From: an uncultured Gammaproteobacteria bacterium
GTDB taxonomy: Bacteria > Pseudomonadota > Gammaproteobacteria > Chromatiales > Chromatiaceae
Direction: 5' to 3'
NCBI GenBank assembly: GCA_963709645.1
Contig: CAVPXP010000021.1
Coordinates: forward strand, 88,445-152,444
DNA length: 64,000 bases
Part shown: piece by piece, positions 12,064 to 61,638 of the stretch
How positions within the stretch are numbered: position 1 is the stretch's first letter
Layout: each line of letters begins with the position of its first letter
Position numbers and translations under genes: made by a program
The notes under the pieces: model-generated
Seen by the model: only the letters and a program-made list of their open reading frames with translations
Databases searched by the model: none
Told to the model about the DNA's origin: nothing

Positions 12064-13752
<1,689 letters not shown>

Positions 13753-28050: not shown

Positions 28051-28057
28051 CCGATCC

Positions 28058-32233: not shown

Positions 32234-33001
32234 CTAATGCCGGGAATCCGTGGGGGCCAGGAAGTCGATGACCACGGTGGTCACATTGTCCCGGCCGCCT
32301 CGGTCGCACGCCTGTTGGACCAGCGACTTGGCGCAGTCGGCGGGTGGGATCTGGTCTAGGGCGGCGGTCAGGGCCTCGTGGTCGAGCTCGCGGAACAAGC
32401 CGTCGCTGCAGAGCAGATAACGGTCGCCGGCTCTGAGTCGCTCGATCTTGCCATCCACTTCCACGGGGGTGTCGCTGCCGATTGCGCGCAGCAGCACGTT
32501 GGACAGGGCGTGGCCTTCTGACCACTCGGGCGAGAGCAGCTCCGCGTCGATCATAGCCTGGACCTGACTGTGATCGGTGGTGAGCTGGGTCAGTACGCCA
32601 TCGCGCAGCCGGTAGGCGCGGCTGTCGCCCACCCAGAGCATCGCGCAGTGCCCGCCGACTGCAAGCAGGGTGACGACGGTGCTGCCGATGATGTCGCCGT
32701 CCAGCAGGGCGGCTGCCCGGTCCAGCAGCGCCTGGTTCACTCTGCGGAGTATCCCGCGGACTTCCCTCGCTGCCGAGCCCAGCCGCCTGGGATGCGGGAG
32801 CTGCGCCAGCCCCTCGACGATGGCGTGGCTGGCCAGGGCGCCGTCGCTGTGGCCCCCCATGCCGTCAGCCACCGCCCACAAACCGAGGTCCGGGCGGTCC
32901 AGATAGGCATCCTGGTTGACGGTACGGACGCATCCCGTGTTGGTGGCCGCTGCCGAGACCCAGCGCAGGGCTGCAGGCCCAGGCCCGTGGGAGGCGGCCA
33001 T
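32234..33001 (-). CDS. pppA: PP2C-family Ser/Thr phosphatase, T6SS-associated (PppA/TagG)
   Basis: TNTGCVRTVNQDAY...WAVADGMGGHSDG...CSDGL...GGRDNVTTVVI. Start overlaps the tagF stop. Confidence 0.88.
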   Translation of the reverse strand: MAASHGPGPAALRWVSAAATNTGCVRTVNQDAYLDRPDLGLWAVADGMGGHSDGALASHAIVEGLAQLPHPRRLGSAAREVRGILRRVNQALLDRAAALLDGDIIGSTVVTLLAVGGHCAMLWVGDSRAYRLRDGVLTQLTTDHSQVQAMIDAELLSPEWSEGHALSNVLLRAIGSDTPVEVDGKIERLRAGDRYLLCSDGLFRELDHEALTAALDQIPPADCAKSLVQQACDRGGRDNVTTVVIDFLAPTDSRH

Positions 33002-33738
33002 CAGGCTGGGCCGAGCCGCAGCCAGCCGCGGTTGGCCCAGTCTCCGGTCAGGAGCGCCGGGAAGCCATCGGGGGCGGGCAGACCCTGACAGGCCAGCAGG
33101 GATGGAGTGACCCGCTCAGACCCCGTGGTCCACCACAAACTGTAGGCAAAGAAGACCTCATCGAGGGCGCGCGCCACCAGCACCGGGCAGGCCTGCGGCA
33201 GTTGGGCCGCTGTGGGGACCTCGATTTGCCATGCATTCAGCTCTCCGGGGTCCGCTGTCTCGCCAGACGGGGAAGCGACCTGTGTTTGCGTACACCCGAG
33301 GGCCAGGACCTGGGCGTCGAACTCGGTCAGGTCGAACCCCTCGTCCAGACCGGCGAGGGCAACCGCCTCGGCGCGCTCGAACCAGTCGGGCGTGCACAGA
33401 GCCACGAAGGGGTTGGTCCCCGGGGCCAGGGGACAGGCGAGGGTCAGCGGAAAGTAACGCCCCACGCGGTCGACGCTCGGCATCAGGACGCCGGTCCAGC
33501 CTGTCTGCCCGGCAATCCCGGGGCTAAGCGCGAAGCGCCAGATTGGGCTGGTCAGATAGTGGTCAAGCCATGCTTGATCCAGCTGGGCCTTGCTGGCGGC
33601 CACGGACTCCCGGAGCCATAGGTCCCACGGCTGGACAAACTGCGTCGGCAGTCGGCGCGTCACGAAGTCGCCCAGGCTCGGCAGCTTGCCGTAGAAACCG
33701 GCTGCGCCCCCCTCGGAACGGGTGTCGATCTGGCTCAT
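33001..33738 (-). CDS. tagF: type VI secretion-associated protein TagF (DUF2094)
   Basis: GFYGKLPSLGDFVTRRLPTQFVQPWDLWL...SPIWRFALSPG...MPSVDRVGRYFPLTL. Confidence 0.88.
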   Translation of the reverse strand: MSQIDTRSEGGAAGFYGKLPSLGDFVTRRLPTQFVQPWDLWLRESVAASKAQLDQAWLDHYLTSPIWRFALSPGIAGQTGWTGVLMPSVDRVGRYFPLTLACPLAPGTNPFVALCTPDWFERAEAVALAGLDEGFDLTEFDAQVLALGCTQTQVASPSGETADPGELNAWQIEVPTAAQLPQACPVLVARALDEVFFAYSLWWTTGSERVTPSLLACQGLPAPDGFPALLTGDWANRGWLRLGPA

Positions 33739-38868: not shown

Positions 38869-38871
38869 GGG

Positions 38872-40750: not shown

Positions 40751-42337
40751 TTAGGACGGTCGGCGTCCGCGGGCCTGCGCCAGGCGCAGGATCTGGTCCT
40801 CATAGGCGCGGGTGAATGCCTCGCCGAAGAGTTGCATGAAGTCCTCCGCCGCGTCCGCGGCGACCTGCCCATAGGTCTGCGTGAACTGGTCCCAATAGCG
40901 TGACTTTCGCGCCATGGGCAGGACCTTGTCGAGCCCGGATGCGGTGTCCAGGCGGGCCTCCAGGGCGCTCGGCTCGAACCGGGCCAGGAGTGCGCGCAGG
41001 GCTGCGCGCAACCCTGCGATCATGGCCATTTCGTGGGCCTGGATGTCGTCGAAGGCCTCCCGCGCCGCGTCCAGCGGGGGCATGTAAGCCGGATTGGGGC
41101 GCAGCAGCAGCCGCTCCATGGCCTCTTCCGGACTCACCGAGAATTTGAACGGGTTGTTCTCGGCCCGGCGTATGGTGGTGACCCCGAGGCGCAGCTCGCT
41201 CTTGAATTGGGAGCGGGCCATCATGGTGGTGGTGAGCCCGGCCGTCATTGCCCGCAGGAGGGCGCCCGCGTCGCGCAGGAAGGCCGCCGCATCCTTCACC
41301 TGCCCAGCGTCCCCGCTGCCGAGCCCGGCGAGGAAGGCTGCCAGAAGATCGTCGGATGCTGCTGCGGGGCCAGTTTGGAGCGCCGGCGAGGCGGGAGAAG
41401 GCTGAGGCGGGGATTGCGGCGCGACATGCGGAGGTGGCGCCGGCACCGGACCTGCTGGCTGGGGGCCCTGTGCGTCTGGTGCCGGGGGCACCGTAACGGG
41501 CCCTGGCATGTCGCCGGAACGCCCCTTGGCTGGGGTTACCGGGGGTTCGAATCCCTGTTCCAGGTCCAGATCGAGTGAAAAGTCCAGGTCCGGGCTGGGG
41601 ACAGGTTCGGGCTCCCTGGGGGGAGGTTGCGGGGGCTCGAAGGCGGGCCCTGGCAGGGGAGCGGGCGGTCCCCCGGCCGGGGCGCCGGTTGGCGTCGGCA
41701 GCGCGTCACTGAGCAGGTCGTACCCGTCTGGGATGGCTTGGATCTCCGGGGCGCGGAAGAAGACGTGCTCCACCGGGGTTGGGTGGGGCTCGGCCGCCCG
41801 TGGGCCCTCATCGACGGGTGCCGGGCCCGCGAGAAAGGGGTCCAAGGGGTGGGCGTCCGCGAATGGGTCCTCGGTCTGCCTTTGCTTATTTCCTGCGGGT
41901 TGTCCGCTGTTGCCCCCGAGCAGGTTCATGATGTCCGGTGCGCCGCCGGGACTGCCTATTCCTGGCATGGCCGCCTCATCCACCGCGAAGGGGTCAGTTT
42001 CCTTGACCCTTTCTCCCGAGTCGATGGAGACGGCAATCTCGTAGGGACCGACGGCAATGGTATCCCCGTCGTGGAGCGCCACCGGCTGGCTTGGCGGCAA
42101 GCGGTCCGCAGACTGATTGATGAAGGTACCGTTGGTGCTCTGGTCGATGAGCCAGACCCCGTCGTCGCGGATCTCGACACTGGCGTGGCGACTCGACACC
42201 AGGCGCTCCGGGTCACCCAGGACGAGGTCATTCTCCGGATTGCGCCCCAAGGCGTAGACGCCGCTGCCAACGTGAAGGCTCGCAGCTTGCTCGGGCGGCA
42301 GACCGCGGTAGCTTGTAACCTCCAGGTGAAGCTTCAT
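40751..42337 (-). CDS. tagH: T6SS-associated FHA-domain protein TagH (Fha)
   Basis: From MKLHLEVTS. FHA residues LGRNPENDLVL, VSSRHASVEI, STNGTFIN. Pro-rich linker and conserved TagH C-terminal domain (NNPFKFS...). The track ORF starts 69 nt upstream at 42406. Confidence 0.85.
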   Translation of the reverse strand: MKLHLEVTSYRGLPPEQAASLHVGSGVYALGRNPENDLVLGDPERLVSSRHASVEIRDDGVWLIDQSTNGTFINQSADRLPPSQPVALHDGDTIAVGPYEIAVSIDSGERVKETDPFAVDEAAMPGIGSPGGAPDIMNLLGGNSGQPAGNKQRQTEDPFADAHPLDPFLAGPAPVDEGPRAAEPHPTPVEHVFFRAPEIQAIPDGYDLLSDALPTPTGAPAGGPPAPLPGPAFEPPQPPPREPEPVPSPDLDFSLDLDLEQGFEPPVTPAKGRSGDMPGPVTVPPAPDAQGPQPAGPVPAPPPHVAPQSPPQPSPASPALQTGPAAASDDLLAAFLAGLGSGDAGQVKDAAAFLRDAGALLRAMTAGLTTTMMARSQFKSELRLGVTTIRRAENNPFKFSVSPEEAMERLLLRPNPAYMPPLDAAREAFDDIQAHEMAMIAGLRAALRALLARFEPSALEARLDTASGLDKVLPMARKSRYWDQFTQTYGQVAADAAEDFMQLFGEAFTRAYEDQILRLAQARGRRPS

Positions 42338-42752
42338 CCCCTCCCCTGCCACAGGCCGGCTCCCCCGGGCGCCGCTTTGGAGCCGCCAGAGCTCGTGGAT
42401 CGACAACGCCGAGGGCCGAACTCCATAACTGTCACCGATGTCACCGAATGGACACCCACTGGTTCAAATTTGAAAGATCGCCGCGAATGGAAAACGCGAT
42501 CGCGGATTGCAGCCCCGTCCAACGGCTCAGAGTATAGCGAAGGTCGAGGGCTCCCTTGCCATGGGTCTTGGGCGATGGCCGGGGATGCGACGGCGAGAAC
42601 CTCGATCCGAACACCCTTGCAGTCGGACATCTTCCGCCCTCGAAGCGATGGTGACCCGCAGCTTAGCCCAACGCGGCCGAATGAGGTACCGTCACAGGGC
42701 CCGGCGCGCCGATGCCCTAGCCGGGCCGCAGACCCAACCGACACGCTCAAGG

Positions 42753-43905
42753 GCGCCAGCAGTCGATTACACTGGGGCCGCCGAAGCCGATCCTGCGCGC
42801 CGGTTGCATCGGGGCCAGATGACTGCCTGGGGACGGAGCCGATCGATGAGTCCAGAAGATAACCGGGTCGTGACCCCCGAGGCCGCCGATGACGGCGGAG
42901 CGACGGTCGTGCGCCTGGATCCGGTTGCACCCCATGGCATTGCCCCCGGGACCCTGTTGGTCAACACCTACCGGGTCGAGCGCCTGCTCGGCGGCGGCGG
43001 CATGGGGGAGGTCTATCTGGCCCGCCATACCGGGCTTGAGACCCGGCACGCCATCAAGGTGATCCGCCCCGCCATGGCCATGAACCGCCAGGTCATGGAC
43101 CTCTTTTATCGCGAAGCGCGGGTACTGCGCGGGGTGCGCCACGACGCCGTGGTGAGCTACGACGGCTTCGTGCGAGACGACCAAGGGCGCGACTACCTGG
43201 TCATGGAGTATGTGGAGGGCTCCTCCCTCGCCGACCGGCTGCGCCGCGGGCCGCTCAACCCCGCAGAGGTACTCAGCCTGCGGGACCGGCTCGCCGCCGG
43301 GCTTGCCGAGGCCCACCGCTGTGGGGCGGTGCATCGGGACATCTCCCCGGACAACGTCATACTGCCCGGAGAGCGCATCGAAGCCGCCAAGCTCATCGAC
43401 TTCGGGGTTTGCAAACTCACCGACCCGACCCAGGAGACCATCATCGGCTCCTCCTTCGCCGGCAAATACCGCTACGCGTCGCCCGAGCAGCTTGGCCTGT
43501 TCGGGGGTGGAGTGGACGCCCGCTCCGACATCTACAGTCTGGGTCTGATTCTCGCCGCCGCCGCCCAGGGGCGCCCCCTGGGCATGGGCGACAGCATCGA
43601 GGGCGCGCTGCGCAGCCGCCAGAGCGTACCCGACCTCAGCGGGGTCCCCGCGGGTCTGCGCGACTGGCTCGTGGCGATGCTGCAACCCGACCCTGCGCAA
43701 CGCCCGGCCACCATGGAGGCGCTGCTCGAGCACTGGCCGGCGGCTGGCGGCGGGACGCAGCGGTCGCCGGGTCGCACCGCCACGGAGGCCGCGGCGCGCT
43801 CTGGCCGCGGCCGACGCGGGTTGACGTGGGCGATCGGGCTGGTGTCGCTCGTAGCCGTTGCCGGCGGCCTTTACTGGCTGCTGCGCCCGCTGCCAGTGGT
43901 GGAGC
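42753..43905 (+). repeat. direct repeat copy 1 (kinase 5' module)
   Basis: 42753-43810 matches 49597-50654 (offset 6844). I aligned both junctions nucleotide by nucleotide. Track ORFs in several frames on both strands are identical between copies (43193..43465 = 50037..50309; 43210..43548 = 50054..50392). About 90% identity continues to about 43905. Confidence 0.9.
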
Positions 43906-44996
43906 GCAACCTGGATGCTGCCGCTACCCGGGGTACTGGGGAGACCGAGGCCGTCGCCGTTAAGGACGCCGATGTCGGGCAAGGCCAAACCCTGCGGGAG
44001 CAGCCGCAGCAGGTGGCGGCTAGGCGGGATGACACGGCGCCGGACACATCCAAGGTGGAAGAGCGATCCCAGGTCGATGTCCAACCCGATACGGCGTCGG
44101 ATGGCACCCCTGAGCCTGCACCCGAAGAAGGTCCGTTGCCGAGGGCGGAAAAGCCGCCTGAGCGCGAAACAGTCATCCCTGGCACACGCTTCGCCGATCC
44201 CTTGGCGGGCGGCGGCTCGGGTCCGATTATGGTCTGGCTACCTGGAGGAGAGTTCCAGATGGGCTCCCCTCCGGAAGAGCCGGGTCGCAACCCAGACGAG
44301 CGACTCCATCTGGCACCGATTCCGGAGCCAATCGCGATGAGCGAGACCGAGATCACCCTGGGGCAGTTTCGGCAGTTCGTCCAGGCGACGGGTTACCGAA
44401 CCGAGGTCGACCGCGAATCCACCTGTCTGAGACCGGACGATGCCTGGCAGCAGCTTGTTCCCGACATGAGCCTTTCGTGGCAGTCCCCGGGTTACGAGGT
44501 CACCGACCGGCATCCCGTCGCGTGCGTCAACTGGAGTGATGCGCGGGCATACGCCAAGTGGCTCACGGATACGACGGGCAAAGACTATCGCTTGCCGACG
44601 GAGCAGGAGTGGGAGTACGCGGCCCGCGCGGGGACCCTCACAAGCCGCTTCTGGGGGGACGATCCCAAGGCAGGCTGCAATCTTGCAAACACGGCGGAGT
44701 GCAAAGACGACTATACCTATGCCGCTCCGGCCGGGACTTTCCCGCCCAACCTCTTCGGGCTGCGCGACATGCTGGGTAATCTCGCCGAATGGACTTGCTC
44801 TGAGTATGGGAAAGGCTACAGTGGCAGCGAGGCCCGGTGCAGCGAGGCCGGCGGAGCGTCACCGCGGGTCTTTCGTGGCGGCTCCTGGCTCGATGCCCCG
44901 GAGCTGGTACGGTCTGCCGCACGGGACGGCGCTCCAGCAAACCTCGGCCTCAACACCGTGGGTTTCCGTGTGGTCCGGACCCTGGGCCCTGAGTAG
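42819..44996 (+). CDS. Hanks-type Ser/Thr kinase with TM helix and periplasmic FGE-sulfatase (SUMF1/TagR-like) domain; PpkA-like by context
   Basis: GGGGMGEVYLARH, HAIKVIR, HRDISPDNVIL, IDFGVCK, YASPEQ. TM WAIGLVSLVAVAGGLYWLL. FGE motifs RLPTEQEWEYAARAG, GNLAEWT, FRGGSWL, GFRVVR. Alternative ATG at 42846. Confidence 0.88.
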   Translation: MTAWGRSRSMSPEDNRVVTPEAADDGGATVVRLDPVAPHGIAPGTLLVNTYRVERLLGGGGMGEVYLARHTGLETRHAIKVIRPAMAMNRQVMDLFYREARVLRGVRHDAVVSYDGFVRDDQGRDYLVMEYVEGSSLADRLRRGPLNPAEVLSLRDRLAAGLAEAHRCGAVHRDISPDNVILPGERIEAAKLIDFGVCKLTDPTQETIIGSSFAGKYRYASPEQLGLFGGGVDARSDIYSLGLILAAAAQGRPLGMGDSIEGALRSRQSVPDLSGVPAGLRDWLVAMLQPDPAQRPATMEALLEHWPAAGGGTQRSPGRTATEAAARSGRGRRGLTWAIGLVSLVAVAGGLYWLLRPLPVVERNLDAAATRGTGETEAVAVKDADVGQGQTLREQPQQVAARRDDTAPDTSKVEERSQVDVQPDTASDGTPEPAPEEGPLPRAEKPPERETVIPGTRFADPLAGGGSGPIMVWLPGGEFQMGSPPEEPGRNPDERLHLAPIPEPIAMSETEITLGQFRQFVQATGYRTEVDRESTCLRPDDAWQQLVPDMSLSWQSPGYEVTDRHPVACVNWSDARAYAKWLTDTTGKDYRLPTEQEWEYAARAGTLTSRFWGDDPKAGCNLANTAECKDDYTYAAPAGTFPPNLFGLRDMLGNLAEWTCSEYGKGYSGSEARCSEAGGASPRVFRGGSWLDAPELVRSAARDGAPANLGLNTVGFRVVRTLGPE

Positions 44997-49596: not shown

Positions 49597-50749
49597 GCGC
49601 CAGCAGTCGATTACACTGGGGCCGCCGAAGCCGATCCTGCGCGCCGGTTGCATCGGGGCCAGATGACTGCCTGGGGACGGAGCCGATCGATGAGTCCAGA
49701 AGATAACCGGGTCGTGACCCCCGAGGCCGCCGATGACGGCGGAGCGACGGTCGTGCGCCTGGATCCGGTTGCACCCCATGGCATTGCCCCCGGGACCCTG
49801 TTGGTCAACACCTACCGGGTCGAGCGCCTGCTCGGCGGCGGCGGCATGGGGGAGGTCTATCTGGCCCGCCATACCGGGCTTGAGACCCGGCACGCCATCA
49901 AGGTGATCCGCCCCGCCATGGCCATGAACCGCCAGGTCATGGACCTCTTTTATCGCGAAGCGCGGGTACTGCGCGGGGTGCGCCACGACGCCGTGGTGAG
50001 CTACGACGGCTTCGTGCGAGACGACCAAGGGCGCGACTACCTGGTCATGGAGTATGTGGAGGGCTCCTCCCTCGCCGACCGGCTGCGCCGCGGGCCGCTC
50101 AACCCCGCAGAGGTACTCAGCCTGCGGGACCGGCTCGCCGCCGGGCTTGCCGAGGCCCACCGCTGTGGGGCGGTGCATCGGGACATCTCCCCGGACAACG
50201 TCATACTGCCCGGAGAGCGCATCGAAGCCGCCAAGCTCATCGACTTCGGGGTTTGCAAACTCACCGACCCGACCCAGGAGACCATCATCGGCTCCTCCTT
50301 CGCCGGCAAATACCGCTACGCGTCGCCCGAGCAGCTTGGCCTGTTCGGGGGTGGAGTGGACGCCCGCTCCGACATCTACAGTCTGGGTCTGATTCTCGCC
50401 GCCGCCGCCCAGGGGCGCCCCCTGGGCATGGGCGACAGCATCGAGGGCGCGCTGCGCAGCCGCCAGAGCGTACCCGACCTCAGCGGGGTCCCCGCGGGTC
50501 TGCGCGACTGGCTCGTGGCGATGCTGCAACCCGACCCTGCGCAACGCCCGGCCACCATGGAGGCGCTGCTCGAGCACTGGCCGGCGGCTGGCGGCGGGAC
50601 GCAGCGGTCGCCGGGTCGCACCGCCACGGAGGCCGCGGCGCGCTCTGGCCGCGGTAGGCGCGGGTTGATGTGGGCGATCGGGCTGGTGTTGCTCGTCGCC
50701 ATTGCCGGCGGTCTTTACTGGCTGCTGCGACCGCTGCCAGTAGTGGAGC
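49597..50749 (+). repeat. direct repeat copy 2 (kinase 5' module)
   Basis: See copy 1. The first mismatch is at 50655 versus 43811, just before the TM helix codons. Confidence 0.9.
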
Positions 50750-51181
50750 CCCAACCGGAGCCAGTACCCAACCGCAACCGCAACCGCAACCCCAACCGCA
50801 ACCCCTGCCATGGGGGAACTCCGTGACCTAATCCGCGAGGGCCGACTGGATGACGCCTTCGCGCTGGCCCAGGACCGCTTGAGCGCCGGGAGGCCACCCC
50901 CGGCAGAGGATCTCTGGGCACTGGGCCAAGGGTTGCTCAAGGCGCGGCGACTCGATCAAGCCTTCGCCCTGATCCGGGAGCTGGCGAACGCCGGACACGG
51001 CCCCGCTGCCTTCGCCTTGGCAGAGATGTACGATCCGTTGCATTGGTCCAAGGACAACTCGCCCTTCTCCAAGCCCAATGGGGCCAAGGCGCGAGACTGG
51101 TACCGTCGTGCTGCCGAGGCTGGGGTGCCAGACGCCGATGCGCGACTCAAGGCCGTCGATAGTGCCGAGGAGGCGCCATGA
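49663..51181 (+). pseudogene. Hanks-type Ser/Thr kinase paralog with TM, Pro-Gln linker and Sel1-like periplasmic domain; one frameshift near 50767
   Basis: The kinase domain is residue-identical to 42819..44996 up to GRGRRGL. TM WAIGLVLLVAIAGGLYWLL. The (CAACCG)n tract reads PNRNRNRN in the track frame and PQPQPQPQPQPLPWGELRDL in the frame of ORF 50810..51181 (AAFALAEMYDP...ARDWYRRAAEAG). Confidence 0.8.
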
Positions 51182-53202
51182 TGCATATGTCGACCCGCCT
51201 CGGGGTTGTGGCAAGGGTCCTTGCGGTAGTCCTGGTCGGCCTCGGAGCCGCGGCGGCTGCGGCTGCCGAGCGGCAGGCCCTGCCCATGCCGGGCAAGACC
51301 AGCCTCTATCAGCGGGTGTTGACCCGCCCCGGCGCCGCTCTGCGGGATGCCCCGAGCACGACGGCCCGGCGCGGTGCCGAGGTGCCGCCGCTGAGCGTCT
51401 TCCACGTCTACGACCGGCGGCAGGTCCAGGGCTCGGACTGGCTGGAGTTGGGCACCGCCGCCGCGGATGCCGCTGTCGGCTGGCTCGCGGCGGCCGAGGT
51501 CATCGACTGGCGTCAGACCCTCACTGTCGCCTTCACGCGTAACGCCGATCGGGAGCCGGCCCTATTCTTTCGTGAGCGGGGGGGGCTGATGGGGCTACTT
51601 GAGTCCGAGACCCTGGTACCGGAGACTGAGCGCCTGCGTGCGGCGATTCGGGAGGGCCGGATCCCGGAGGGATTTCCGGTGATCGCCAAGGAGCCGGATA
51701 CCTATGTGGATCCTAACCGCCAATTCTATCTGCTGCCGATCCTGGCTCACGAGCAGGTCGACCTGGAAAGCGGCCTGCGTGCGACGGTCTTGGATGTGGC
51801 GGCGGTGACGCTCCAGGCAGGGGATCCGGACCTGCTCGCCCAGGGTGCGGGGGGCGGCGGCGGTGCGTCAGCGGGGACAGGGGATGCCCCGGCTGGGGCG
51901 CCTGCGGACTATCGTGCCGGGGTGGTCTTCGTGGTCGACACCACAACCTCCATGGGTCCCTACATCGACCGCACCCGCGCGGCCATCCGCCGCATCTACG
52001 ATCGGCTCAAGGGCTCGCCGATGGGCGACGCACTGAGCTTCGGACTGGTAGCCTTTCGGGACAACACCGAGGTGACCCCCGGCCTGGAGTATGTAAGCCG
52101 GGTGGCTGCCACCCTGGAGGACGGCCGGGACCCGTCGGGCTTCTTCGGCAAGGTGAACCGCGTGGAGGCGACCAATGTCTCCAGCCGGGGGTTCAACGAG
52201 GATGCGTTTGCCGGGGTCTACGACGCCATCGAGTCCATCGACTGGCGGGGCTACGCGGGCCGTTTCGTCGTGCTGATCACCGACGCCGGCGCGCGCGAGG
52301 CCAATGACCCCCTATCGCGCACCCACCTGGGGGCCGAGCGCCTGCGCCTCCTGGCCCAGGAAAAGGACCAGACTGCCGGCGGCGGCAAGATCGCCATCGC
52401 GGCCCTGCACCTCCTCACCCCAGAGGGCCGCCAGACCCATCAGCTCGCCGCTGCCCAGTATCACACCCTGACCCGCTGGGGTGACGCCGGTGACCTCTAT
52501 TTCCCGGTGAAGGGGGGCTCGGTGGATGCCTTCGGCTCCCAGGTGGATGCGCTTGCCGACGCCCTGGTGCAGCAACTGGAGGGCATCCGCTCGGGCCGAA
52601 TCATTCAGGTGCCCGAGGGACCTCAGGCCACTGAGGTGGAGCGCAAGACCGCCCTGGTCGGGCGTGCCATGCAGCTCGCCTATCTGGGGCGGGAGGCCGG
52701 TAGCCGGGCGCCGCGCCTGATCGATGGCTGGGTCAGCGACCGCGACCTCACGGACCCGTCCCAGAAGGTTCTGGAGGTGCGGGTCCTCATCGGCAAGAAC
52801 CAGTTGAGCAACCTCCAGGAGACCCTGGAGGCCATCGTTGCCGCCGGGGAGCGTACCACCATGACCGCCAAGGACTTCTTCGGCCAGTTGCGGGGTGCCG
52901 CGGCGGCCCTGGCTCGTGACCCGGACAAGGTCAGCACGTTGCAGGTGAAGCGCCTGGCGGATGTGGGCCTGGTGGGGGAGTGGCTGGACGATCTGCCCTA
53001 CACCAGCCAGATCATGAATCTTACCGAGTCCCGTTGGCTGGCGCGCTCCTACGCGGAGCAACAAGAGGTGCTGGACGCCATCGAGGAGAAGATCCGGCTC
53101 TACCGCCGCATCCATGACGATACGGACCGTTGGATCGATCTGAGCGGGCGCGCCTCCAAGGGCGAGTCGGTCACCACCATCCCCTTGGACGCCCTGCCCT
53201 GA
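51178..53202 (+). CDS. secreted/periplasmic vWA-domain protein
   Basis: Signal VLAVVLVGLGAAAAAAA. MIDAS-type VVFVVDTTTSMGPY, then VVLITDAG. Long helical C-terminal region. ATG overlaps the kinase stop (ATGA). Confidence 0.8.
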   Translation: MMHMSTRLGVVARVLAVVLVGLGAAAAAAAERQALPMPGKTSLYQRVLTRPGAALRDAPSTTARRGAEVPPLSVFHVYDRRQVQGSDWLELGTAAADAAVGWLAAAEVIDWRQTLTVAFTRNADREPALFFRERGGLMGLLESETLVPETERLRAAIREGRIPEGFPVIAKEPDTYVDPNRQFYLLPILAHEQVDLESGLRATVLDVAAVTLQAGDPDLLAQGAGGGGGASAGTGDAPAGAPADYRAGVVFVVDTTTSMGPYIDRTRAAIRRIYDRLKGSPMGDALSFGLVAFRDNTEVTPGLEYVSRVAATLEDGRDPSGFFGKVNRVEATNVSSRGFNEDAFAGVYDAIESIDWRGYAGRFVVLITDAGAREANDPLSRTHLGAERLRLLAQEKDQTAGGGKIAIAALHLLTPEGRQTHQLAAAQYHTLTRWGDAGDLYFPVKGGSVDAFGSQVDALADALVQQLEGIRSGRIIQVPEGPQATEVERKTALVGRAMQLAYLGREAGSRAPRLIDGWVSDRDLTDPSQKVLEVRVLIGKNQLSNLQETLEAIVAAGERTTMTAKDFFGQLRGAAAALARDPDKVSTLQVKRLADVGLVGEWLDDLPYTSQIMNLTESRWLARSYAEQQEVLDAIEEKIRLYRRIHDDTDRWIDLSGRASKGESVTTIPLDALP

Positions 53203-53930
53203 TGGCCCCCTCGCCGCCGGTCTATCTGTGCCGGGCACTTGTGAAGCGTCGGCAGGCAGGGGGAACCCGATTCGAGCTCCTGGTGCCGGAGCTGAGGGTC
53301 CGCCCGGGGGAGGTGGTAGTCCTGCGCGGCCAGAGCGGCTGCGGCAAGAGCACCCTCCTCGACCTGCTCGCGTTTGCGCTCAGGCCCGACGGCGCCGAGA
53401 CCTTCAGTTTTCATCCGGAGCACCGTCAGCCCACGGATCTGCTCCGGCTCTGGGGGCGGCGCGACCTGGACGGGCTCGGGCGGCTGCGTGGCGCCCACGT
53501 CGGCTATGTGCTCCAGACGGGCGGACTCTTGCCCTTCCTTACCGCCCGGGAGAATATCGCCCTGTCCTGCCGCCTGTTGGGGCAGGACCCGGCCGGTCTC
53601 GTCGAGCGCCTCGCGGAGCGGCTGGGCATCGGCCCGCAGCTCGACAAGAATCCAGGCCAGCTCTCGGTGGGGGAGCGCCAGCGGGTCGCCATCGCCCGCG
53701 CCCTGGCTCACCGCCCGAGTGTGCTGCTGGCGGATGAGCCTACGGCCTCGGTGGACCCGGTGAATGCGGCCGCTATCCTGGATCTGCTCTTGGAACTGGT
53801 GCGCCAGGCGGGGGTGACCGCGGTGATCGCGAGCCACGACTGGCACCCGGACGGGATCCCCGGGGTCCAGGTGCTCGAGCACCGCATCGAGCGCGACGGC
53901 GAGACCACGCGATCGCTGTTCTGGAACTGA
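53202..53930 (+). CDS. ABC transporter ATP-binding protein (LolD/MacB-type; TagT-like by context)
   Basis: Walker A GQSGCGKST, signature LSVGERQRVAIARAL, Walker B VLLADEPTASVD. Start overlaps the vWA stop (TGATG). Confidence 0.88.
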   Translation: MAPSPPVYLCRALVKRRQAGGTRFELLVPELRVRPGEVVVLRGQSGCGKSTLLDLLAFALRPDGAETFSFHPEHRQPTDLLRLWGRRDLDGLGRLRGAHVGYVLQTGGLLPFLTARENIALSCRLLGQDPAGLVERLAERLGIGPQLDKNPGQLSVGERQRVAIARALAHRPSVLLADEPTASVDPVNAAAILDLLLELVRQAGVTAVIASHDWHPDGIPGVQVLEHRIERDGETTRSLFWN

Positions 53931-53937: not shown

Positions 53938-55156
53938 ATGCGCCCCAATCGGGAGATCCTGCGCCTGGCGTATCGGGACTTCGCTCACGAGCGGCGTATC
54001 TCGCTGTGCTTCGTGCTTGGCCTTGATGGCGGTGCTGGCGCCGCTACTGGTCCTGTTCGGTCTCAAGTTCGGTCTGGTGGACACCCTGGCCCAGCGCCTG
54101 GTCGAATCGCCTGCCAATCGGGAGGTCTTGGCGGTGGGCAGTCGGAGCTTCGACGAGGCCTGGTTCGCCCGCATTGCGGCCCGAGCGGACGTGGCCTTCG
54201 TGGTCCCCAACACCCGTCGCATCGCCGCAAGCCTCAGCCGGCTCATGAGTCCCTCCAAGGGGACCGAACTGCGCGCCCTGCAGATGATCCCCACGGGCGC
54301 GGGCGACCCCCTGCTCGGGGCCCCTGGCCTTGCACCCTCCGGTGTGACTGAGCTGGTCCTTTCCGCGGCTGCGGCGCGCAAGCTGGCGGCCGTACCGGGT
54401 GACCGGCTGGTGGCGCGCATCGACCGCCACCGCAACGGCCAGGACGAGGGCGTGGTATGGGAGCTGACCGTCACCGGGGTCCTGGCCCCAGAGGCCCTGG
54501 TGGAGGAGGCGGCCCTGGTGCCCCTGGCGCTTCTGGTCGCCACCGAGGACTATCGGGACGGGGTCGCGGTGCCGGAGTTGGGCTGGGAGGGCTCCGAGCC
54601 CCCGCCCCGCCCCCGGACCTATGCCCGGTTCCGGCTCTATGCGACCAGCATCTACAAGGTGGCCGAACTGGCCGCGGATCTGACCGCCGAAGGCATCGAG
54701 GTGCGTACCCAGGTGGCCGAGATCGCCGCGGTGCAGTCCCTGGATCGGAACTTGACCCGGGTCTTCTGGCTGATTGCCCTGATCGGGACACTGGGCTTTC
54801 TGGCCTCGCTCGCGGCCAACCTGCTGGCCAACGTGGAGCGCAAGCGCCGGGAACTGTCCATCGTCCGGCTGATCGGCTTTCCAACCCTGAGCCTGGTCCT
54901 GTTCCCGGTGACCCAGGCGGTGTTGGTGGCGATGCTGGGTGCCCTTGCTGCACTGGCCCTGTACCTGCCTGTCGCTACCGCGCTGAACGGCTGGTTCGCC
55001 GAAAGCCTGCAACCGGGGGAATCCATTTGCCGGCTGCTGCCCGGTCACGTCATGAGTGCGCTCGCTGCGACTTTGCTCGGTGCGGCGGCCTCGGCCGCCT
55101 GGGCCGGCTGGCGAGCGGCGCGCATCGAGCCTGCCGAGGGACTGAGAGATGTCTAG
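53938..55156 (+). pseudogene. FtsX-like ABC permease (TagS-like by context), one frameshift near 54015
   Basis: MRPNREILRLAYRDFAHERRISLCFVLG in frame 53938, continuing as LMAVLAPLLVLFGLKFGL in frame 54017. Large periplasmic loop. C-terminal FtsX helices RKRRELSIVRLIGF... Confidence 0.8.
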
Positions 55157-56816
55157 TGTATCTTTTGCGCGGTTGCTGGCTGCCCTGTTCGGGACCCTTG
55201 TCCTGGCGCTGGGCTCCGGCCTGGCCTCTGCCGATCAGGCCGCGGGGCCCGTGACCTGGCCGGAGAAGTTCTTCAACCCGACGCCGGCGGCCGATGATCT
55301 GGTGCTGCCCCTGGCGTGCGGCGGCGCCATGGTCTTTCGCCCCGTGGAGATCCCCTCCGACAACCTGTTGGACGACCGTCAGGTGGAACTCGGCCAGAGC
55401 GATGCCGATCGCGGTTACAAGGAGGGTCGGCGTTTGAGCCACCTGGCCGGCGCATTCTCGGAGCCGTCATCGGCGGCGCGCCGATACTACATCGCCAAAT
55501 ACGAGACGACCCGCGATCAATACGCCGCCCTGACCGCTGAGACCTGCCCCACACCCTCGATGCAGGGACGTTTGCCCATGACGGAGGTTAGTTGGTTCGA
55601 TGCGGTGGACCTGGCGCGCCGCTACACGGAGTGGCTGCTCGCCCACGCGCCCGACGCCATGCCCCGGGAAGATCGCGAGCCGGGTTTCCTGCGCCTGCCC
55701 ACGGAAGAGGAGTGGGAGTTCGCCGCCCGCGGGGGGCTGATGGTCGACGAGACGGACTTTCTGGCCCCCGTCTTTCCCATGCCCGAGGGCGACCTCGCAC
55801 GCTATGCCTGGTTCGAGAGCACCCGTTCCGCGGAGGGCAGCCTCCACCCCGTCGGGCTGCTGAAGCCCAATCCCCTGGGCCTTCACGACATCCTCGGCAA
55901 CGCCGCCGAGATGACCCTGGTTCCCTTCCACCTGGATCGACGGGGCCGCCCCCACGGTCAGGCCGGTGGATTCGTCAGCCGCGGCGGCGACGTCTTCACC
56001 CCCGAGAGCCAGCTGGGCAGTGCCGTGCGCCAGGAGCACAACTATTTCAACGGCGCAACCGGGCGCGCCAAGACGCTGGACAGCCTGGGCTTCCGTTTGG
56101 TGCTGACGGCCCCGGTGATCGTCTCCCCCCAGCGCCTGGACGCGATCAAGCAGGCCTGGTCGGTGTTGCCCGCCCTGACCGGGGATGCGGGGGGCGATGC
56201 GGCTCAGGCCCTCGCGGACCTCCGACAGTTGGCCGAGCAGTCCCAGGACCAGGCACTGCGCGCCCGTCTGGAACTGATTCAGCGAGACATGGAGCGGAGC
56301 CAGTCTGCGATCAACGAGGCCCGCGCCCGTACCATGCGCGCCCTCCTGCGCCTCGGTGCCTTTCTCGGGAAGCGGGTGGTCACGGACCGACAGAAGGCGC
56401 GGGCTATCGAGCAGCTTATCGGGCTTGCAGAGGGCCGCTTCGATCGCTTCGCTGCGGAAGTCTCCGGCCGGCAAGGCTCTGACGCGGCGATCGATGAGGC
56501 CCGCGCGTCCCTCAAGGACAAGATGGCGAAGTGGCAGACACAGCTCGATGAGATCCGTGAGAGTCTGGACAATAGCCTGTCCTATTACGGCGATACGGTG
56601 ATTGGCGTGGGTCGGGATTTCGGAGAGCAGGAGGTGGGAGCGGGGATCGAGGTCGTGAACGATGAGTTTCACCTGAAGCAGAACGCCTACTTGATCCCAT
56701 ACGCGGCGCAGTTCGTGGCACACATGGCGGCCTACCGTCTCAATGGACAAGCGGACAAGGGTTCCTGGCTTGGCGACCTTGATCGGATCGGTGCCGAACG
56801 AGGGCCAGTACCCTGA
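55149..56816 (+). CDS. periplasmic FGE-sulfatase (SUMF1) domain protein with C-terminal coiled coil (TagR-like by context)
   Basis: Signal LLAALFGTLVLALGSGLASA. FGE motifs YYIAKYETT, RLPTEEEWEFAARGG, GNAAEMT, GFRLVL. About 200-aa helical tail. 8-nt overlap with the permease gene. Confidence 0.8.
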   Translation: MSSVSFARLLAALFGTLVLALGSGLASADQAAGPVTWPEKFFNPTPAADDLVLPLACGGAMVFRPVEIPSDNLLDDRQVELGQSDADRGYKEGRRLSHLAGAFSEPSSAARRYYIAKYETTRDQYAALTAETCPTPSMQGRLPMTEVSWFDAVDLARRYTEWLLAHAPDAMPREDREPGFLRLPTEEEWEFAARGGLMVDETDFLAPVFPMPEGDLARYAWFESTRSAEGSLHPVGLLKPNPLGLHDILGNAAEMTLVPFHLDRRGRPHGQAGGFVSRGGDVFTPESQLGSAVRQEHNYFNGATGRAKTLDSLGFRLVLTAPVIVSPQRLDAIKQAWSVLPALTGDAGGDAAQALADLRQLAEQSQDQALRARLELIQRDMERSQSAINEARARTMRALLRLGAFLGKRVVTDRQKARAIEQLIGLAEGRFDRFAAEVSGRQGSDAAIDEARASLKDKMAKWQTQLDEIRESLDNSLSYYGDTVIGVGRDFGEQEVGAGIEVVNDEFHLKQNAYLIPYAAQFVAHMAAYRLNGQADKGSWLGDLDRIGAERGPVP

Positions 56817-57156
56817 TCGACGGCCCAGGCCGAAGCAGGGATTCCCATAGTCGATTGCGGCGGTCGCATCCCTGAGCTTGGCCAGGCACATTCTTGGTCA
56901 AACGGTCTGGAAAAACCCGGTGCCAGCAGGTGCGGGGTGACCCCAGGCCAGCGGTCTTGCAATCGGTGGAAAGAGCGAACCGAATTGTGACTGGACTTAG
57001 GCGATTTCTGTCAGATCATGCACCAGCTAGCTTGTCTTTGCGCCCGCCTTTCTCGTCGCGCCAGCAGTCACATAGCCCAGCTATGCTTCCGCCGGTACTC
57101 CTTGAAGGCGGACGTCAATTCGGCGCCAGCTGGTACATGATTCTCCGGCAATCGCC

Positions 57157-57945
57157 TTAGTCGATCTCTCGTACGTGCATCTGCACATTACCGATGTCAA
57201 TGACGTCTCCGACCGTGAGGGGATGGCTGGGCAACACCTGCTTTTGGTTGACAAAGGTTCCATTCGCGCTGCCAAGATCCGTCAGTGTCAGCGCGATCTT
57301 CCCGCCAGACCGGCCGACCGAAATCTTGGCGTGCTGGCGAGATATGCAATCGTCATTGATCTGCAGGTCGACATTCTCGGAACGTCCGATAATCGCCCCA
57401 TGCCGGATTTGCAGCCGTTGCTCGAAACCCGACCCGACCCGCGGCTGTACGAAAAACAAAACGCTGGCCTGTCGGTACGCGGGGATAATCGTGGTTGGCT
57501 GAGGGTCCACAATGGAGCCGTGCTGGACCGCAGACAGCGTCAGCGACTCGGGCGGCACACCCAGGATAAGCGCCAGCAATCGTTGGCCCGCACGGTCAGC
57601 ATCCCTGCGGAAATCGATAAATTGAACGGTCCCGAGTTTTAGGTGGACTTCGCCGGGTTCGCAGGTCCTGGTCATCAGCGGGATAACACGTCCACGCATA
57701 TGCTCCAGGGCCCAATGAGTCTCTGCCTGAACCCATTCCGACCTTTGGGCGTCAGGTGACAGGACGACGATAAACCAGTCGGCTTGCACCAGCGCCTCAC
57801 GGATTTGCCTTTGCCAGTCGTTAGCCGTTCTGATGTGGGTTGCGGAGCACCAGGTGATTACGCCCTGCCCGCCAAACAATGGCTGGAGCTGGTTGCGAAC
57901 AAAATCAACGTCCTTGCTCGAATGACTGATGAAGAGCCGGGTCAT
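57157..57945 (-). CDS. TIR domain - FHA domain fusion protein
   Basis: From ATG 57945. TIR_2-like MTRLFISHSSKDVDFV...DWFIVVLSPDAQRSEWVQAETHWAL. FHA AIIGRSENVDLQINDDCISRQHAKI...LGSANGTFVNQKQV. The sampled line 57361-57420 is about 58% G+C against about 75% for 51241-51300. Confidence 0.8.
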   Translation of the reverse strand: MTRLFISHSSKDVDFVRNQLQPLFGGQGVITWCSATHIRTANDWQRQIREALVQADWFIVVLSPDAQRSEWVQAETHWALEHMRGRVIPLMTRTCEPGEVHLKLGTVQFIDFRRDADRAGQRLLALILGVPPESLTLSAVQHGSIVDPQPTTIIPAYRQASVLFFVQPRVGSGFEQRLQIRHGAIIGRSENVDLQINDDCISRQHAKISVGRSGGKIALTLTDLGSANGTFVNQKQVLPSHPLTVGDVIDIGNVQMHVREID

Positions 57946-58429
57946 GGTCGTCGGAATCGCCCTGCCTGCAGTTCGTCGGCTGAGCGCATGGGGTCCAGGC
58001 GGACAACGGCTTTCTGGCGGTTTTCGCTGTTCAGGGGGCACCGGGAAACAGCGCAATCGATGGCCGCTGGTGGCGCGTACTGCGACGCGGGACTCGTCTG
58101 CATCGACTTCTGCTTCAAAGTGGGAGATCCGGTTTTCGGCTGGTTCCCCTTAAGACCTGCCAGCTGATTCCCCTTGGAGAGCCGGCTTCGCCGTCGGCAG
58201 ACTCGTTCACGACCCAAAGGCGCAGATCGAAGAGCTCGCGATTTGATGGTGCCGGACAGGGTTGTGCCACGGGGACGCTGCAGGTGCACCTCAAGGCCGA
58301 TACAAGCGGTTATTGGGGTCGCATCGCAAAGGGATCGACCGACTGGCATTCTCACTACCCCTCGTGTTGTATGATTGTTCTCATCCGCGCGCTGAGGCAG
58401 TACGATTCGCTGGATCTTCGACCATGCTA

Positions 58430-58580: not shown

Positions 58581-58731
58581 CTAGCGGTCGGACGGGGGCG
58601 GCGCAGCTGGGCGGCGGCCTCTCGGTGACGTGCTGAAGTCTAACTGGTTTCCCCAGCATTTTTACCATAATCAGGTGTAGCTGACTGCATAGGGGGAGTG
58701 ATGTTCGATCTGTCCGTGACGACAACCAAGC

Positions 58732-59478
58732 TTGTCTGGCGTCGCCCCCGCATTTGCGGCTGCCGTGATTCTGATGGGAGGGTGCGTCAGCACCGGGGAT
58801 CGGGTTGGCGAGTCCGTCTCCGGTGCCGGGTCCTGGATGAGCGGGCTCACCGGCGGGGCGTCCACGACGGCTGCACCGGACAGTTCGCTCACCCCTGCCG
58901 AACAACGCCTGCGAAAACAGAGCCAGGCGTTCCAGAAAACGGTGTGGGAAGGGGTCCTGATCGGCGCCAGCGCTGGTGCGCTGTTGGGCATCTTCCAGGG
59001 TAAGGATACAGAGGGGATCCTCAAAAGGGCCCTGATCGGCGGGGCAGTGGGCGGCCTGGCCGGGGCCTACGTTGCCAGCAAACAGAAGCAATACTCGGAC
59101 AAGGAGGACCAGCTCGATTCGATGATTGCTGACGTGCAGCAGTCGAACAAAGAGACCGAGGAGCTGATTGGCAGCGCGCGGCAGGTCCTGGCCGAAGACA
59201 AGCGTCGCCTCGCCTCCGTGCGGAGCCGCTACAAGGCAGGGCAGGCCTCGGAGGCGGATCTGACGAGTACCCGCAGTCGTGTTTCGGAGAACGAGGCCGT
59301 GGTTAGCCAGGCCACCAAGGGCGCGCGGGAGAAATACTCCATGTTCGAGGGCGCCGAGCGGGAGTACCGACAGCAGAACCCCGGCACAGATACAGCTGGC
59401 CTGCAGAAGGAGCTCCGGGCCTATAACCAGCAAATCGAGACCCTGGATGGCCTCGCGAACACGGTCTCGGCAGCCTAG
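58732..59478 (+). CDS. lipoprotein with glycine-zipper segment and coiled-coil C-terminus
   Basis: Lipobox VILMGGC. Glycine zipper GVLIGASAGALLGIF...LIGGAVGGLAGAYVA. The TTG start at 58732 is uncertain. Confidence 0.6.
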   Translation: MSGVAPAFAAAVILMGGCVSTGDRVGESVSGAGSWMSGLTGGASTTAAPDSSLTPAEQRLRKQSQAFQKTVWEGVLIGASAGALLGIFQGKDTEGILKRALIGGAVGGLAGAYVASKQKQYSDKEDQLDSMIADVQQSNKETEELIGSARQVLAEDKRRLASVRSRYKAGQASEADLTSTRSRVSENEAVVSQATKGAREKYSMFEGAEREYRQQNPGTDTAGLQKELRAYNQQIETLDGLANTVSAA

Positions 59479-60494: not shown

Positions 60495-61638
60495 ATGCGG
60501 CAGGGCAGGAGATCTCACGACCACGCAGGCGCCGGGCAACCCAAAGTGTCATTCGATTCTACGAAACCCATTGCCGTCTCCCTGGCGCTGATTGTCGTGC
60601 GTCGCTGGGCTCTATGCCGATCCGGCCCTCTGCGGACTCCGGCGCGACGCCGAAGAAGACCGGCGACCTCGGGTTCTGGGAGGAGCTCGCCTTCTGGGAG
60701 ACCGTCAAGAACAGCAAGGACCCGTCAGAGTTCGAGGCCTATCTGGCCACCTACCCCACCGGGCGCTTTGCGCGCCTTGCCGAGATACGGATCAAGGCGC
60801 TGAAGAGGCAAACCGCACCGGCATCGGGGAGGAGTCCACAGGTCCCCATCCGATGGCGGCGGACCTGCTGGCGGCATGTCGGCGGGTCGGCCGGGACAAC
60901 GGATCGCTGCGGGCGACGGGGCGACCGAGCACCTTTCGGGATTGCGACGCATGCCCGTTGATGGTGGAGGTACCGGCAGGCACCTACCTGATGGGCTCCG
61001 ACCAAGGCCGCCCGGACGAGAAGCCTAGACACGAGGTCCGCTTCGCCCGCCCATTCGCGATCGGCGTCTACGAGATAACACTCGCCGAATGGGACGCCTG
61101 TCTGCGCGAGGGCGGCTGCCGCTTCAGCCCCGAGGCGGGCGCTGACGGTCGCCTGCCTGCCAGCAATCTGAGCTGGGACGACGCACAAGAGTATGTCGCC
61201 TGGCTCAGCAAGAAGACGGGTCATGCGTACCGATTGCCGACCGAGGCCGAGTGGGAGTACGCAGCCAGCGGGGGCAAGACGACGGCCTATTGGTGGGGCG
61301 ACGAGGTCGGCAAGGGTAACGCGAATTGCAGTGACTGCGGGAGCGACTGGGATGGCCGCGGCCCGGCTCCGGTCGGATCTTTCGCGCCCAATCCGTTCGG
61401 GCTCTACGACGTCCACGGCAACCTGTGGGAATGGACGATGGACTGCGTGAATGGCTCCTACAAAGGAGCACCCGTCGACGGCTCGGCCTGGCTTCGGGGC
61501 GATTGCATCGCGCGCATCCTGCGCGGCGGCAGCTGGAATCTGGGGGCTGACTACATGCGAACGACCCGGCGGAATCATTACGACCGGGACGTTCGCTACT
61601 ACCTGCACGGTTTCCGGGTCGTCCGGTCCATGCCCTGA
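60495..61638 (+). pseudogene. membrane-anchored FGE-sulfatase (SUMF1) domain protein, about 2 frameshifts; start uncertain
   Basis: The putative anchor KPIAVSLALIVV (frame 60447), DLGFWEELAFWETVKNSKDPSEFEAYLATYPTGRFARLAEIRIKAL (frame 60614) and the FGE domain in frame 60592 (RLPTEAEWEYAASGG, GNLWEWT, LRGGSW, GFRVVRS) read as one gene. Confidence 0.7.

Follow-up and report, generated by a model that had tools for sequence, protein, structure and literature searches.

A TIR-FHA fusion protein that recurs with a TagQRST-PpkA-like threonine-kinase module in Chromatiaceae: a candidate kinase-controlled TIR output

Introduction

What does a protein that joins a TIR domain to a phosphothreonine-binding FHA domain do among the genes of an envelope-sensing protein kinase? 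The question is raised by a gene, here called TIR-FHA, on contig CAVPXP010000021.1 (GenBank assembly GCA_963709645.1) of an uncultured gammaproteobacterium of the family Chromatiaceae. We analysed positions 88,445 to 152,444 of this contig; the 64,000-nucleotide stretch is referred to as the window, and coordinates are counted from its first letter unless another locus is named.

TIR enzymes are central to the immunity of bacteria, plants and animals, and to our knowledge the well-described bacterial TIR effectors are all triggered by nucleotide second messengers, nucleic-acid-guided Argonautes, NLR-like sensors or phage proteins. The TagQRST-PpkA pathway senses envelope damage or attack and triggers a counter-attack by the system for type VI secretion (T6SS) in Pseudomonas. 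An initial annotation of the window had described TIR-FHA as a horizontally acquired effector controlled by threonine phosphorylation; it overlooked the main point, which is that TIR-FHA recurs in a T6SS-associated threonine-phosphorylation module. Judged from the domains of its proteins, this module is made up of an outer-membrane lipoprotein like TagQ, a periplasmic FGE-sulfatase protein of the TagR kind, an ABC-like TagS/TagT pair, a VWA protein of the periplasm and a kinase that crosses the membrane once. We lean towards the view that TIR-FHA is the kinase-controlled TIR output of this TagQRST-PpkA-like envelope sensor, probably activated by phosphothreonine (pThr)-driven recruitment or oligomerisation.

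Domain architecture and conserved residues of TIR-FHA

A 262-amino-acid (aa) open reading frame (ORF) on the minus strand was confirmed at the annotated position. A TTG at 58056 is the furthest start of the mechanically called ORF and would give 299 aa; the ATG that yields 262 aa is favoured, as the equivalent of its MTR (MxR) sequence was the start in all 60 aligned homologues. Profile searches placed both domains well above the Pfam cutoffs, with TIR_2 (PF13676) at aa 5-123 (E=6.9e-22, 78.6 bits against a cutoff of 28, covering profile positions 2-121 of 122) and FHA (PF00498) at aa 185-252 (E=1.7e-18, 67.2 bits against a cutoff of 20.7). Structure prediction gave the same architecture. The full-length AlphaFold2 model, built on the 60-sequence alignment, had a mean predicted local distance difference test (pLDDT) score of 83 and showed two confident domains and a disordered linker; pLDDT was 93-97 across most residues of the FHA domain, and a model of the TIR domain alone reached a pLDDT of 84.5 and a predicted template modelling (pTM) score of 0.81. 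With a pTM of 0.50 for the full-length model and a disordered linker, no statement is possible on autoinhibition or inter-domain packing.

The TIR model has the flavodoxin-like TIR fold and was matched by Foldseek to the TIR domain of SPARTA TIR-APAZ (TM-score 0.79-0.84), the best matches including activated, tetramerised SPARTA complexes, and to AbTir (TM-score 0.73), both with probability 1.00; PdTIR was also among the matches. For the FHA part, which shows the 11-strand beta-sandwich fold, the top structural matches were the FHA domains of OdhI/GarA (E=3e-10, target-normalised TM-score 0.75-0.83), FhaA and DgcB. Neither a transmembrane segment nor a signal peptide was found in TIR-FHA, which is therefore predicted to be cytoplasmic. 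The gene is under purifying selection, with dN/dS values of 0.15-0.21 against three orthologues; comparison with the related locus L091 gave 0.61 (pN 0.36 at 85% aa identity), an implausible value that probably stems from a frameshift or misregistration in a short contig and was discarded.

All motifs quoted in the initial annotation were located: FISHSSKD at aa 5-12 and FIVVLSPDAQRSEWVQAE at aa 58-75 in the TIR part, and IIGRS (G187, R188), SRQH (S202-H205) and ANGTFVN (N228, G229) in the FHA part. The glutamate that had been placed at the catalytic site, E75 (codon 57721-57723), aligned by phmmer with E208 of AbTir, and W71 aligned with W204 (PDB chains 7uwg and 8g83); in AbTir, E208 is the essential catalytic glutamate and W204 the tryptophan required for ADP-ribose (ADPR) cyclisation (10.1101/2022.05.07.491051). 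Across 60 family members with identities down to 36%, S69, W71, E75, H77 and W78 of the TIR domain and G187, R188, S202, R203, N228 and G229 of the FHA domain were invariant and H205 was conserved in at least 90%, in agreement with the canonical pThr-binding residues named at the outset. TIR-FHA is thus likely, by residue alignment, to be an NAD-cleaving TIR, and the tryptophan conserved at the cyclisation position hints at a possible cyclic ADPR product.

Within the linker, only one short motif stood out. In T151-T152-I-I (nt 57484-57495), threonine occupied each of the first two columns in 41-42 of the 60 sequences, and position 154, which is +3 from T151, was I, V, L or M in 54 of 60, while the remaining linker was unconserved. 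The motif is compatible with pT-x-x-(I/L/V), a common FHA preference, and resembles a conserved Q-E-T-I-I-G in the activation loop of the module kinase. We regard it as a candidate phospho-acceptor and FHA self-ligand, its pattern being suggestive only.

Recurrence beside threonine-phosphorylation and T6SS genes

A search of 5.8 billion proteins returned about 100 clusters of 240-298 aa with both domains, and the named hosts were Chromatiaceae (Thiodictyon, Lamprocystis and Allochromatium). The family is small: a library that had been clustered at 50% identity contained only ~25 representatives of the full-length protein. Loci were drawn from genomes, metagenomes and exact-protein look-ups, and their flanks were scored by tblastn and phmmer with the window genes and the T6SS genes of related loci as queries. 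The counted set comprised 36 non-redundant loci, each with at least 6 kb of flank, and neighbours were counted within 10 kb; the counts are a lower bound because only homologues of the queries are detectable.

A gene of the threonine phosphorylation pathway or the T6SS lay within this distance of TIR-FHA in 25 of the 36 loci. The TagQ-like pair (Gly-zipper and/or 190-aa lipoprotein) was found in 19 loci, TagR/S/T or VWA genes in 14, T6SS core genes in 11 and a kinase in 9. Homologues of TIR-FHA therefore do stand near kinase, PP2C or TagQRST-like genes (the same 25 of 36 loci), and the earlier proposal of control by threonine phosphorylation is strongly suggested by this context, although the mechanism itself is put forward here as a model.

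At least five gene orders were found around TIR-FHA. In the first, which the window shares with L001, L012, L017, L019, L088, L097, L100 and L102, the gene (with or without a preceding 419-aa gene) lies between the TagQ-like gene and a TagR-S-T-VWA-kinase run. The second is that of L089 (38% identity), where kinase, TIR-FHA, VWA-like, ABC, FtsX and FGE-sulfatase genes follow one another on a single strand (6155-14562 of that locus); T6SS core genes were not detected within 8 kb, the remaining called genes encode SufBD, adenylosuccinate lyase and MarC, and the operon may be a self-contained sensor-kinase-TIR system. In the third order TIR-FHA comes after TssM-TagF-PP2C (L007), with VgrG interposed in L022/L120; in the fourth it adjoins ClpV-TssG-TssF (L021/L087, L023 and L026); and in the fifth, represented by L024, a divergent kinase gene is immediately upstream. 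Since the association survives such rearrangement, function rather than mere inheritance is favoured. In Chromatiaceae and related Gammaproteobacteria the module, as recognised from its predicted proteins, travels with T6SS genes, and on balance we take TIR-FHA to be a recurrent accessory part of it.

The wider TIR clade points in the same direction. Sixty-six proteins of this clade, 45-50% identical, had other architectures, in which the W and E of W-x-x-x-E were again invariant; their fusion partners included TPR (17 proteins), Pkinase (8) and WD40 (4), and one was a TIR-FHA-TPR protein. By the Rosetta-stone argument, the direct TIR-kinase fusions link the clade to Ser/Thr phosphorylation. 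In the fused relatives (P0142-P0260) the TIR domain sits N-terminal of the TPR, Ser/Thr-kinase or WD40 part, and genome loci matched by this TIR domain alone came from Planctomycetota, Acidobacteriota and Nostoc.

Three further genes accompany TIR-FHA in related loci and are absent from the window. A conserved 419-aa protein is encoded directly upstream, in overlapping or abutting frames, in L004 (8745-10004) and also in L009, L010, L013, L019, L088, L098, L100 and L112; it matched no Pfam family, and L001 and L017 retain C-terminal remnants only. A conserved 446-aa gene, unrelated to the former and with no Pfam match on record, follows TIR-FHA in loci adjacent to T6SS core genes (L087, 8764-10104; L022, 11349-12587; L026). 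Several loci (L088, 9009-9770; L098, L100, L112 and L113) have a second TagQ-like lipoprotein paralogue of ~253 aa, encoded between TIR-FHA and the TagR-like gene.

Gene surroundings in the window

The features of the window are listed in Table 1. As initially annotated, TIR-FHA is convergent with the TagR-like gene, from which it is separated by 340 bp. The only cytoplasmic parts of the module are TIR-FHA, the ABC ATPase and the catalytic domain of the kinase. A frameshift splits the module kinase at 50770-50826, so that it is called as two ORFs; the break falls within a (CAACCG)n tract near 50770-50810, and the orthologue in L001 and L019 is one gene of about 530-540 aa. The VWA gene adjoins the kinase gene in L001, L012, L019, L089, L097, L100 and L102 as well. 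The TagQ-like lipoprotein has a lipobox-like N-terminus and matched NCBIfam VI_TagQ weakly (E=7.4e-12, 45 bits against a cutoff of 300), and the coiled-coil lipoprotein beside it, which matched no Pfam family, is kept in L001, L004, L009-L014, L017, L019, L088 and L089.

Table 1. Coordinates of TIR-FHA, its domains and the surrounding features in the window
Feature	Coordinates	Strand	Remarks
PP2C phosphatase, PppA/TagG-like	32234..33001	-	
TagF	33001..33738	-	
TssM	33749-37355	-	split in 2 ORFs
TssL/OmpA-like protein		-	T6SS cluster, after TssM
TssK	38865-40211	-	split in 3 ORFs
TssJ	40223-40723	-	
TagH/Fha1, canonical	40751..42406	-	FHA + T6SS_FHA_C
Second kinase	42507..44996	+	fused to periplasmic FGE-sulfatase domain
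PpkA-like Hanks Ser/Thr kinase	49648..51181	+	one transmembrane segment (aa 338-356), periplasmic TPR/Sel1-like tail
Periplasmic VWA protein	51178..53202	+	signal peptide, weak VWA match
TagT-like ABC ATPase, LolD/FtsE/DevA type	53130..53930	+	true start probably downstream of first start codon
TagS-like FtsX-family permease	54017..55156	+	
TagR-like secreted FGE-sulfatase (C-type-lectin fold) protein	55149..56816	+	
TIR-FHA gene	57157..57945	-	262 aa from ATG
FHA domain, aa 159-261	57163..57471	-	Pfam FHA, Foldseek, residue conservation
Disordered linker, aa 131-158	57472..57555	-	pLDDT <50 for aa 131-155
TIR domain, aa 1-130	57556..57945	-	Pfam TIR_2, TIR-only model, Foldseek
MITE-like element, 160 bp	58433-58592		23-nt terminal inverted repeats; 487 bp upstream of the TIR-FHA ATG
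TagQ-like Gly-zipper lipoprotein	58732..59478	+	Pfam Gly-zipper; divergent from TIR-FHA
Coiled-coil lipoprotein, ~190 aa	59489..60067	+	co-transcribed with TagQ-like gene
Second FGE-sulfatase protein	60592..61638	+	Pfam E=3e-55

A partial T6SS cluster containing the PP2C, TagF and TagH genes lies ~15 kb from TIR-FHA on the minus strand. Beyond it, the second kinase gene is followed by Sel1, autotransporter and hydrolase genes and then by the plus-strand kinase operon. The cytoplasmic kinase and transmembrane segments of the two kinases were near-identical (42753-43900 and 49597-50750; 363 of 367 aa, 99%), the first 300 nt of both copies being 100% identical, while the periplasmic parts differed, one being an FGE-sulfatase domain and the other a TPR/Sel1-like tail. 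Either a recent duplication or gene conversion by which one kinase exchanges its sensor domains could account for the pair, or else an assembly artefact.

A 174-aa ORF at 57942-58466 on the minus strand was considered as an operon partner or immunity gene and rejected, given its flat codon-position GC (0.63/0.57/0.61) and the lack of any Pfam family or homologue in related loci. Promoter, terminator and Rfam scans over 56.5-62.5 kb found nothing. At the window end, a minus-strand kinase fragment (63529-63987) most resembles the DUF8082 kinase of a conserved trio that adjoins the TagQ-like pair in L001 (4213-7540), L004 (3743-7177) and L108; the trio comprises a caspase-like Peptidase_C14 protein with PG_binding_1, a Tll0287-like/HAMP protein and the DUF8082 kinase. 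On the other side of the window, part of 23278-32107, scanned from 28016 on, resembles a Bat aerotolerance-type operon with a VWA-TPR protein (28016-30028) and BatD (30155-32107); it adjoins the T6SS PP2C gene, and no link was drawn from its VWA-TPR protein to the module's VWA protein.

Proposed mechanism and points against it

If TIR-FHA is the TIR output of the module, the pathway might work as follows. The kinase would be activated by an envelope signal, and the FHA domain would then dock on a pThr of the autophosphorylated kinase and/or on the linker T-T-I-I of a neighbouring TIR-FHA molecule. Docking would concentrate and oligomerise the TIR domains and thereby form the composite active site that TIR NADases need, upon which NAD+ would be cleaved, leading to depletion or to a cyclic ADPR-type signal, until the PP2C phosphatase reset the system. 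The threonine phosphorylation pathway would in this way have two parallel outputs, TIR-FHA being the second beside TagH/Fha1, which drives T6SS assembly.

Several points weigh against this proposal. The NADase activity, the phosphorylation and the FHA ligands are all inferences on our part. Two BB-loop residues that AbTir needs for activity, G174 and S176, are A41 and D43 in TIR-FHA, and the assembly geometry may therefore differ from AbTir filaments; BB loops differ among TIR classes, and as far as the alignment goes the mismatch speaks against AbTir-like packing, not against catalysis. No receptor for a cyclic ADPR-type signal was found among the window genes scanned around TIR-FHA. In the window itself frameshifts interrupt TssM, TssK and the partner kinase; these may reflect long-read indel errors, or the T6SS and the kinase may be decaying beside an intact TIR-FHA gene. 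Many of the loci come from metagenome-assembled genomes of related Chromatiaceae, so the neighbour counts are not phylogenetically independent. Finally, 11 of the 36 loci (e.g. L002, L005, L016, L018 and L090) showed neither a kinase nor a T6SS gene within 10 kb, and the link is therefore not obligatory in cis; in L002 TIR-FHA adjoins SmpB, and in L005 (Allochromatium warmingii) it adjoins transposases.

Should the proposal hold, phosphothreonine signalling would join the known triggers of TIR enzymes, with a Hanks kinase exerting the control by way of an FHA domain, and the T6SS threonine phosphorylation pathway would gain a second, non-secretory output. What is new is the combination of a threonine-phosphorylation module with a putative TIR output or, equivalently, of a TIR effector with a putative FHA gate. 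A more tentative generalisation, which we hold with distinctly less confidence, is that purple sulfur bacteria and related organisms have also wired the TagQRST-PpkA pathway via FHA to a TIR NADase, so that threonine phosphorylation would directly turn on NAD+-based signalling or cell suicide; TIR enzymes would then be regulated in a way not described before. Loci of the L089 type may represent a T6SS-independent sensor-kinase-TIR immune module.

Base composition and the question of transfer

The lower GC content of the gene, which underlay the initial annotation as a horizontally acquired effector, was borne out in direction: TIR-FHA has a GC content of 57.7% and a GC at third codon positions (GC3) of 0.68, whereas the adjacent operon has 66-70%, rather than the roughly 75% estimated by hand, and a GC3 of 0.81-0.84. 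Only 0.2% of the 789-bp windows across the 64 kb reach a GC content as low, and the low-GC patch extends from 56401 to 58790. Such a patch is what one would expect of a horizontally acquired TIR effector that acts on its own in abortive infection or against phages and whose proximity to the T6SS merely reflects a shared 'conflict island'. Partial, TIR-only PADLOC matches to ThsB, TIR-SAVED and TIR-NLR models point the same way, as do isolated homologues near mobile or toxin-antitoxin genes in L005 (IS605 OrfB, DDE transposase) and L087 (Y1 transposase, PIN-VapB), and TIR-FHA diverges faster than TagR, TagS and TagT: between the window and L019 it is 60% identical, as against 81-85% for these three (the coiled-coil lipoprotein is about as conserved as TIR-FHA, at 63%, and the TagQ-like one more so, at 72%).

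The comparison across loci nevertheless makes this explanation unlikely. Low GC was rejected as a family signature, as the gene-minus-flank difference over 26 family loci averaged -1.5%. The closest alleles with available DNA are themselves lower in GC (57% in L091, 85% identical, and 60% in L092, 68% identical). L091 keeps the convergent TagR-like end downstream of TIR-FHA, the slot between the TagQ-like and TagR-like genes is kept in all of the loci named above for the first gene order although TIR-FHA is only 50-60% identical across them, and in L089 the gene is part of the operon. This conserved synteny disfavours a foreign insertion. PADLOC gave no full-length system match, no ThsA-like or other partner was present among the neighbouring genes scanned, and the FHA domain needs a kinase-made ligand, for which the module supplies the nearest kinases. 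Most simply, TIR-FHA is read as a faster-evolving allele in a conserved slot, possibly swapped by recombination; had transfer happened, like would have replaced like within a conserved locus, with no foreign gene arriving.

The repeat noted ~480 bp from TIR-FHA in the initial annotation was recovered as a miniature inverted-repeat transposable element (MITE)-like element (Table 1). Another copy, in inverted orientation and 93% identical, occupies 61810-61968, and the two flank a 3.2-kb segment with the TagQ-like lipoprotein, 190-aa lipoprotein and FGE-sulfatase genes; none of the related loci was found to contain the element. A second lower-GC stretch (~61%) at 45951-48790, which separates the kinase module from the T6SS half-cluster, contains an autotransporter gene with a Big_1 domain (46480-48603).

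Other explanations

A non-enzymatic role is less probable still. Many TIR domains are scaffolds, and TIR-FHA could be an adaptor whose TIR domain serves homotypic assembly, the protein positioning or regulating T6SS assembly as a second Fha or buffering the kinase. TLR and MAL TIR domains were indeed among the Foldseek matches of the TIR model, the BB-loop residues required in AbTir are not conserved, T6SS core genes are co-located in 11 of the 36 loci, and the genes scanned included no nucleotide-signal receptor. An adaptor would however hardly be expected to keep the catalytic glutamate and the cyclisation tryptophan invariant in 60 sequences and in 66 relatives of other architectures. TIR-FHA also lacks T6SS_FHA_C, the domain that defines TagH, and in L089, which combines the module with TIR-FHA, T6SS core genes went undetected within 8 kb.

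We consider it very improbable that TIR-FHA is an NADase toxin delivered by the T6SS. The T6SS is known to deliver NAD(P)+-degrading toxins, the order VgrG, TIR-FHA, 446-aa gene in L022/L120 has the look of an effector-immunity arrangement, and in L087 a series of VgrG, PAAR-like and AHH toxin genes ends just upstream of TIR-FHA, which here too precedes the 446-aa gene. Yet TIR-FHA carries no PAAR, MIX or Rhs domain and has no adaptor gene (e.g. DUF4123) beside it, adjacency to VgrG is confined to L022/L120, and no conserved adjacent immunity gene was found, with none in the window; moreover, the genes of L002 and L005 are orphans, that of L089 is inside a sensor-kinase operon, and FHA is a cytoplasmic signalling module.

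Thoeris, SAVED and other known defence systems were rejected, since their matches were partial, TIR-only and without partner genes (for Thoeris, a weak ThsB_TIR match of 24.2 bits, E=4.6e-5, with no ThsA-type domain, SIR2 or Macro-SLOG, in the scanned neighbours and none listed among the called genes of related loci).

Comparison with known systems

Kinase control of a TIR output, the explanation that we prefer, is best judged against the H1-T6SS pathway of Pseudomonas aeruginosa. At the domain level only, the window matches the TagQRST-PpkA-PppA pathway: it has an outer-membrane lipoprotein (weak TagQ match), a TagR-type FGE-sulfatase protein, an FtsX permease with a LolD-type ATPase, a Hanks kinase with a VWA element, PP2C, TagF, an FHA output protein and T6SS core genes. 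The VWA of PpkA is its own periplasmic domain, whereas here it is a separate periplasmic protein, and the gene order also differs. In P. aeruginosa, TagQRST activate PpkA, and Fha1/TagH binds the pThr of PpkA, is its substrate and promotes T6SS assembly, a sequence that PppA reverses; TagR, TagS and TagT are of the COG1262, COG4591 and COG1136 types, respectively (PMC13584744). Unlike Fha1/TagH, TIR-FHA has a TIR domain instead of T6SS_FHA_C (PF20232), for which it gave no match, and it scored 28 bits against the cutoff of 120 for TIGR03354 (TagH).

The module also shares features with the vWA/FGS conflict systems known from multicellular bacteria (PMC7159879, PMC10907252), namely Chromatiaceae hosts (e.g. 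Thiohalocapsa) and vWA, FGS/C-type-lectin, kinase, TIR and caspase parts. It differs from them in that the module genes scanned included no MoxR ATPase, VMAP or STAND NTPase; no reverse transcriptase of a diversity-generating retroelement (DGR) was seen among the window ORFs scanned, where no search aimed at DGRs was made. In Kaur et al. 2020 FHA is mentioned sporadically among vWA-system effectors and the TIR-FHA locus type is not described (PMC7159879), while Dore et al. 2024, on Chromatiaceae DGRs, mention neither FHA nor T6SS and leave this locus type undescribed (PMC10907252). TIR is likewise unmentioned among T6SS accessory factors in a 2026 review (PMC13584744), and in literature searches for 'TIR-FHA' and for TIR with FHA and T6SS or kinase we found no description of an FHA-regulated TIR effector, the matches being Kaur et al. 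2020 and a general review of defence systems.

Among TIR proteins, TIR-FHA resembles AbTir/BtTir, SPARTA TIR-APAZ, TIR-SAVED and ThsB in its TIR_2 fold, FISHxS, W-x-x-x-E and aromatic cyclisation residue. Like the TIR NADases that are activated by oligomerisation, it couples an enzymatic-type TIR to a separate regulatory or sensor domain; unlike them, this domain is a pThr-dependent FHA, and the BB loop differs from that of AbTir. In contrast to SPARTA, TIR-SAVED and Thoeris, it has no Argonaute, SAVED, ThsA or STING partner.

On the side of the FHA domain, TIR-FHA departs from the GarA/OdhI phospho-switch, its FHA not being stand-alone. Bdellovibrio DgcB (FHA-GGDEF) is an enzyme activated when its own FHA binds its phosphorylated tail (PMC6733907). 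Like DgcB, TIR-FHA has a flexible segment with a conserved threonine motif that is a candidate ligand for the FHA domain in cis or in trans, but it carries a TIR domain instead of GGDEF, and the motif is in the inter-domain linker rather than in an N-terminal tail.

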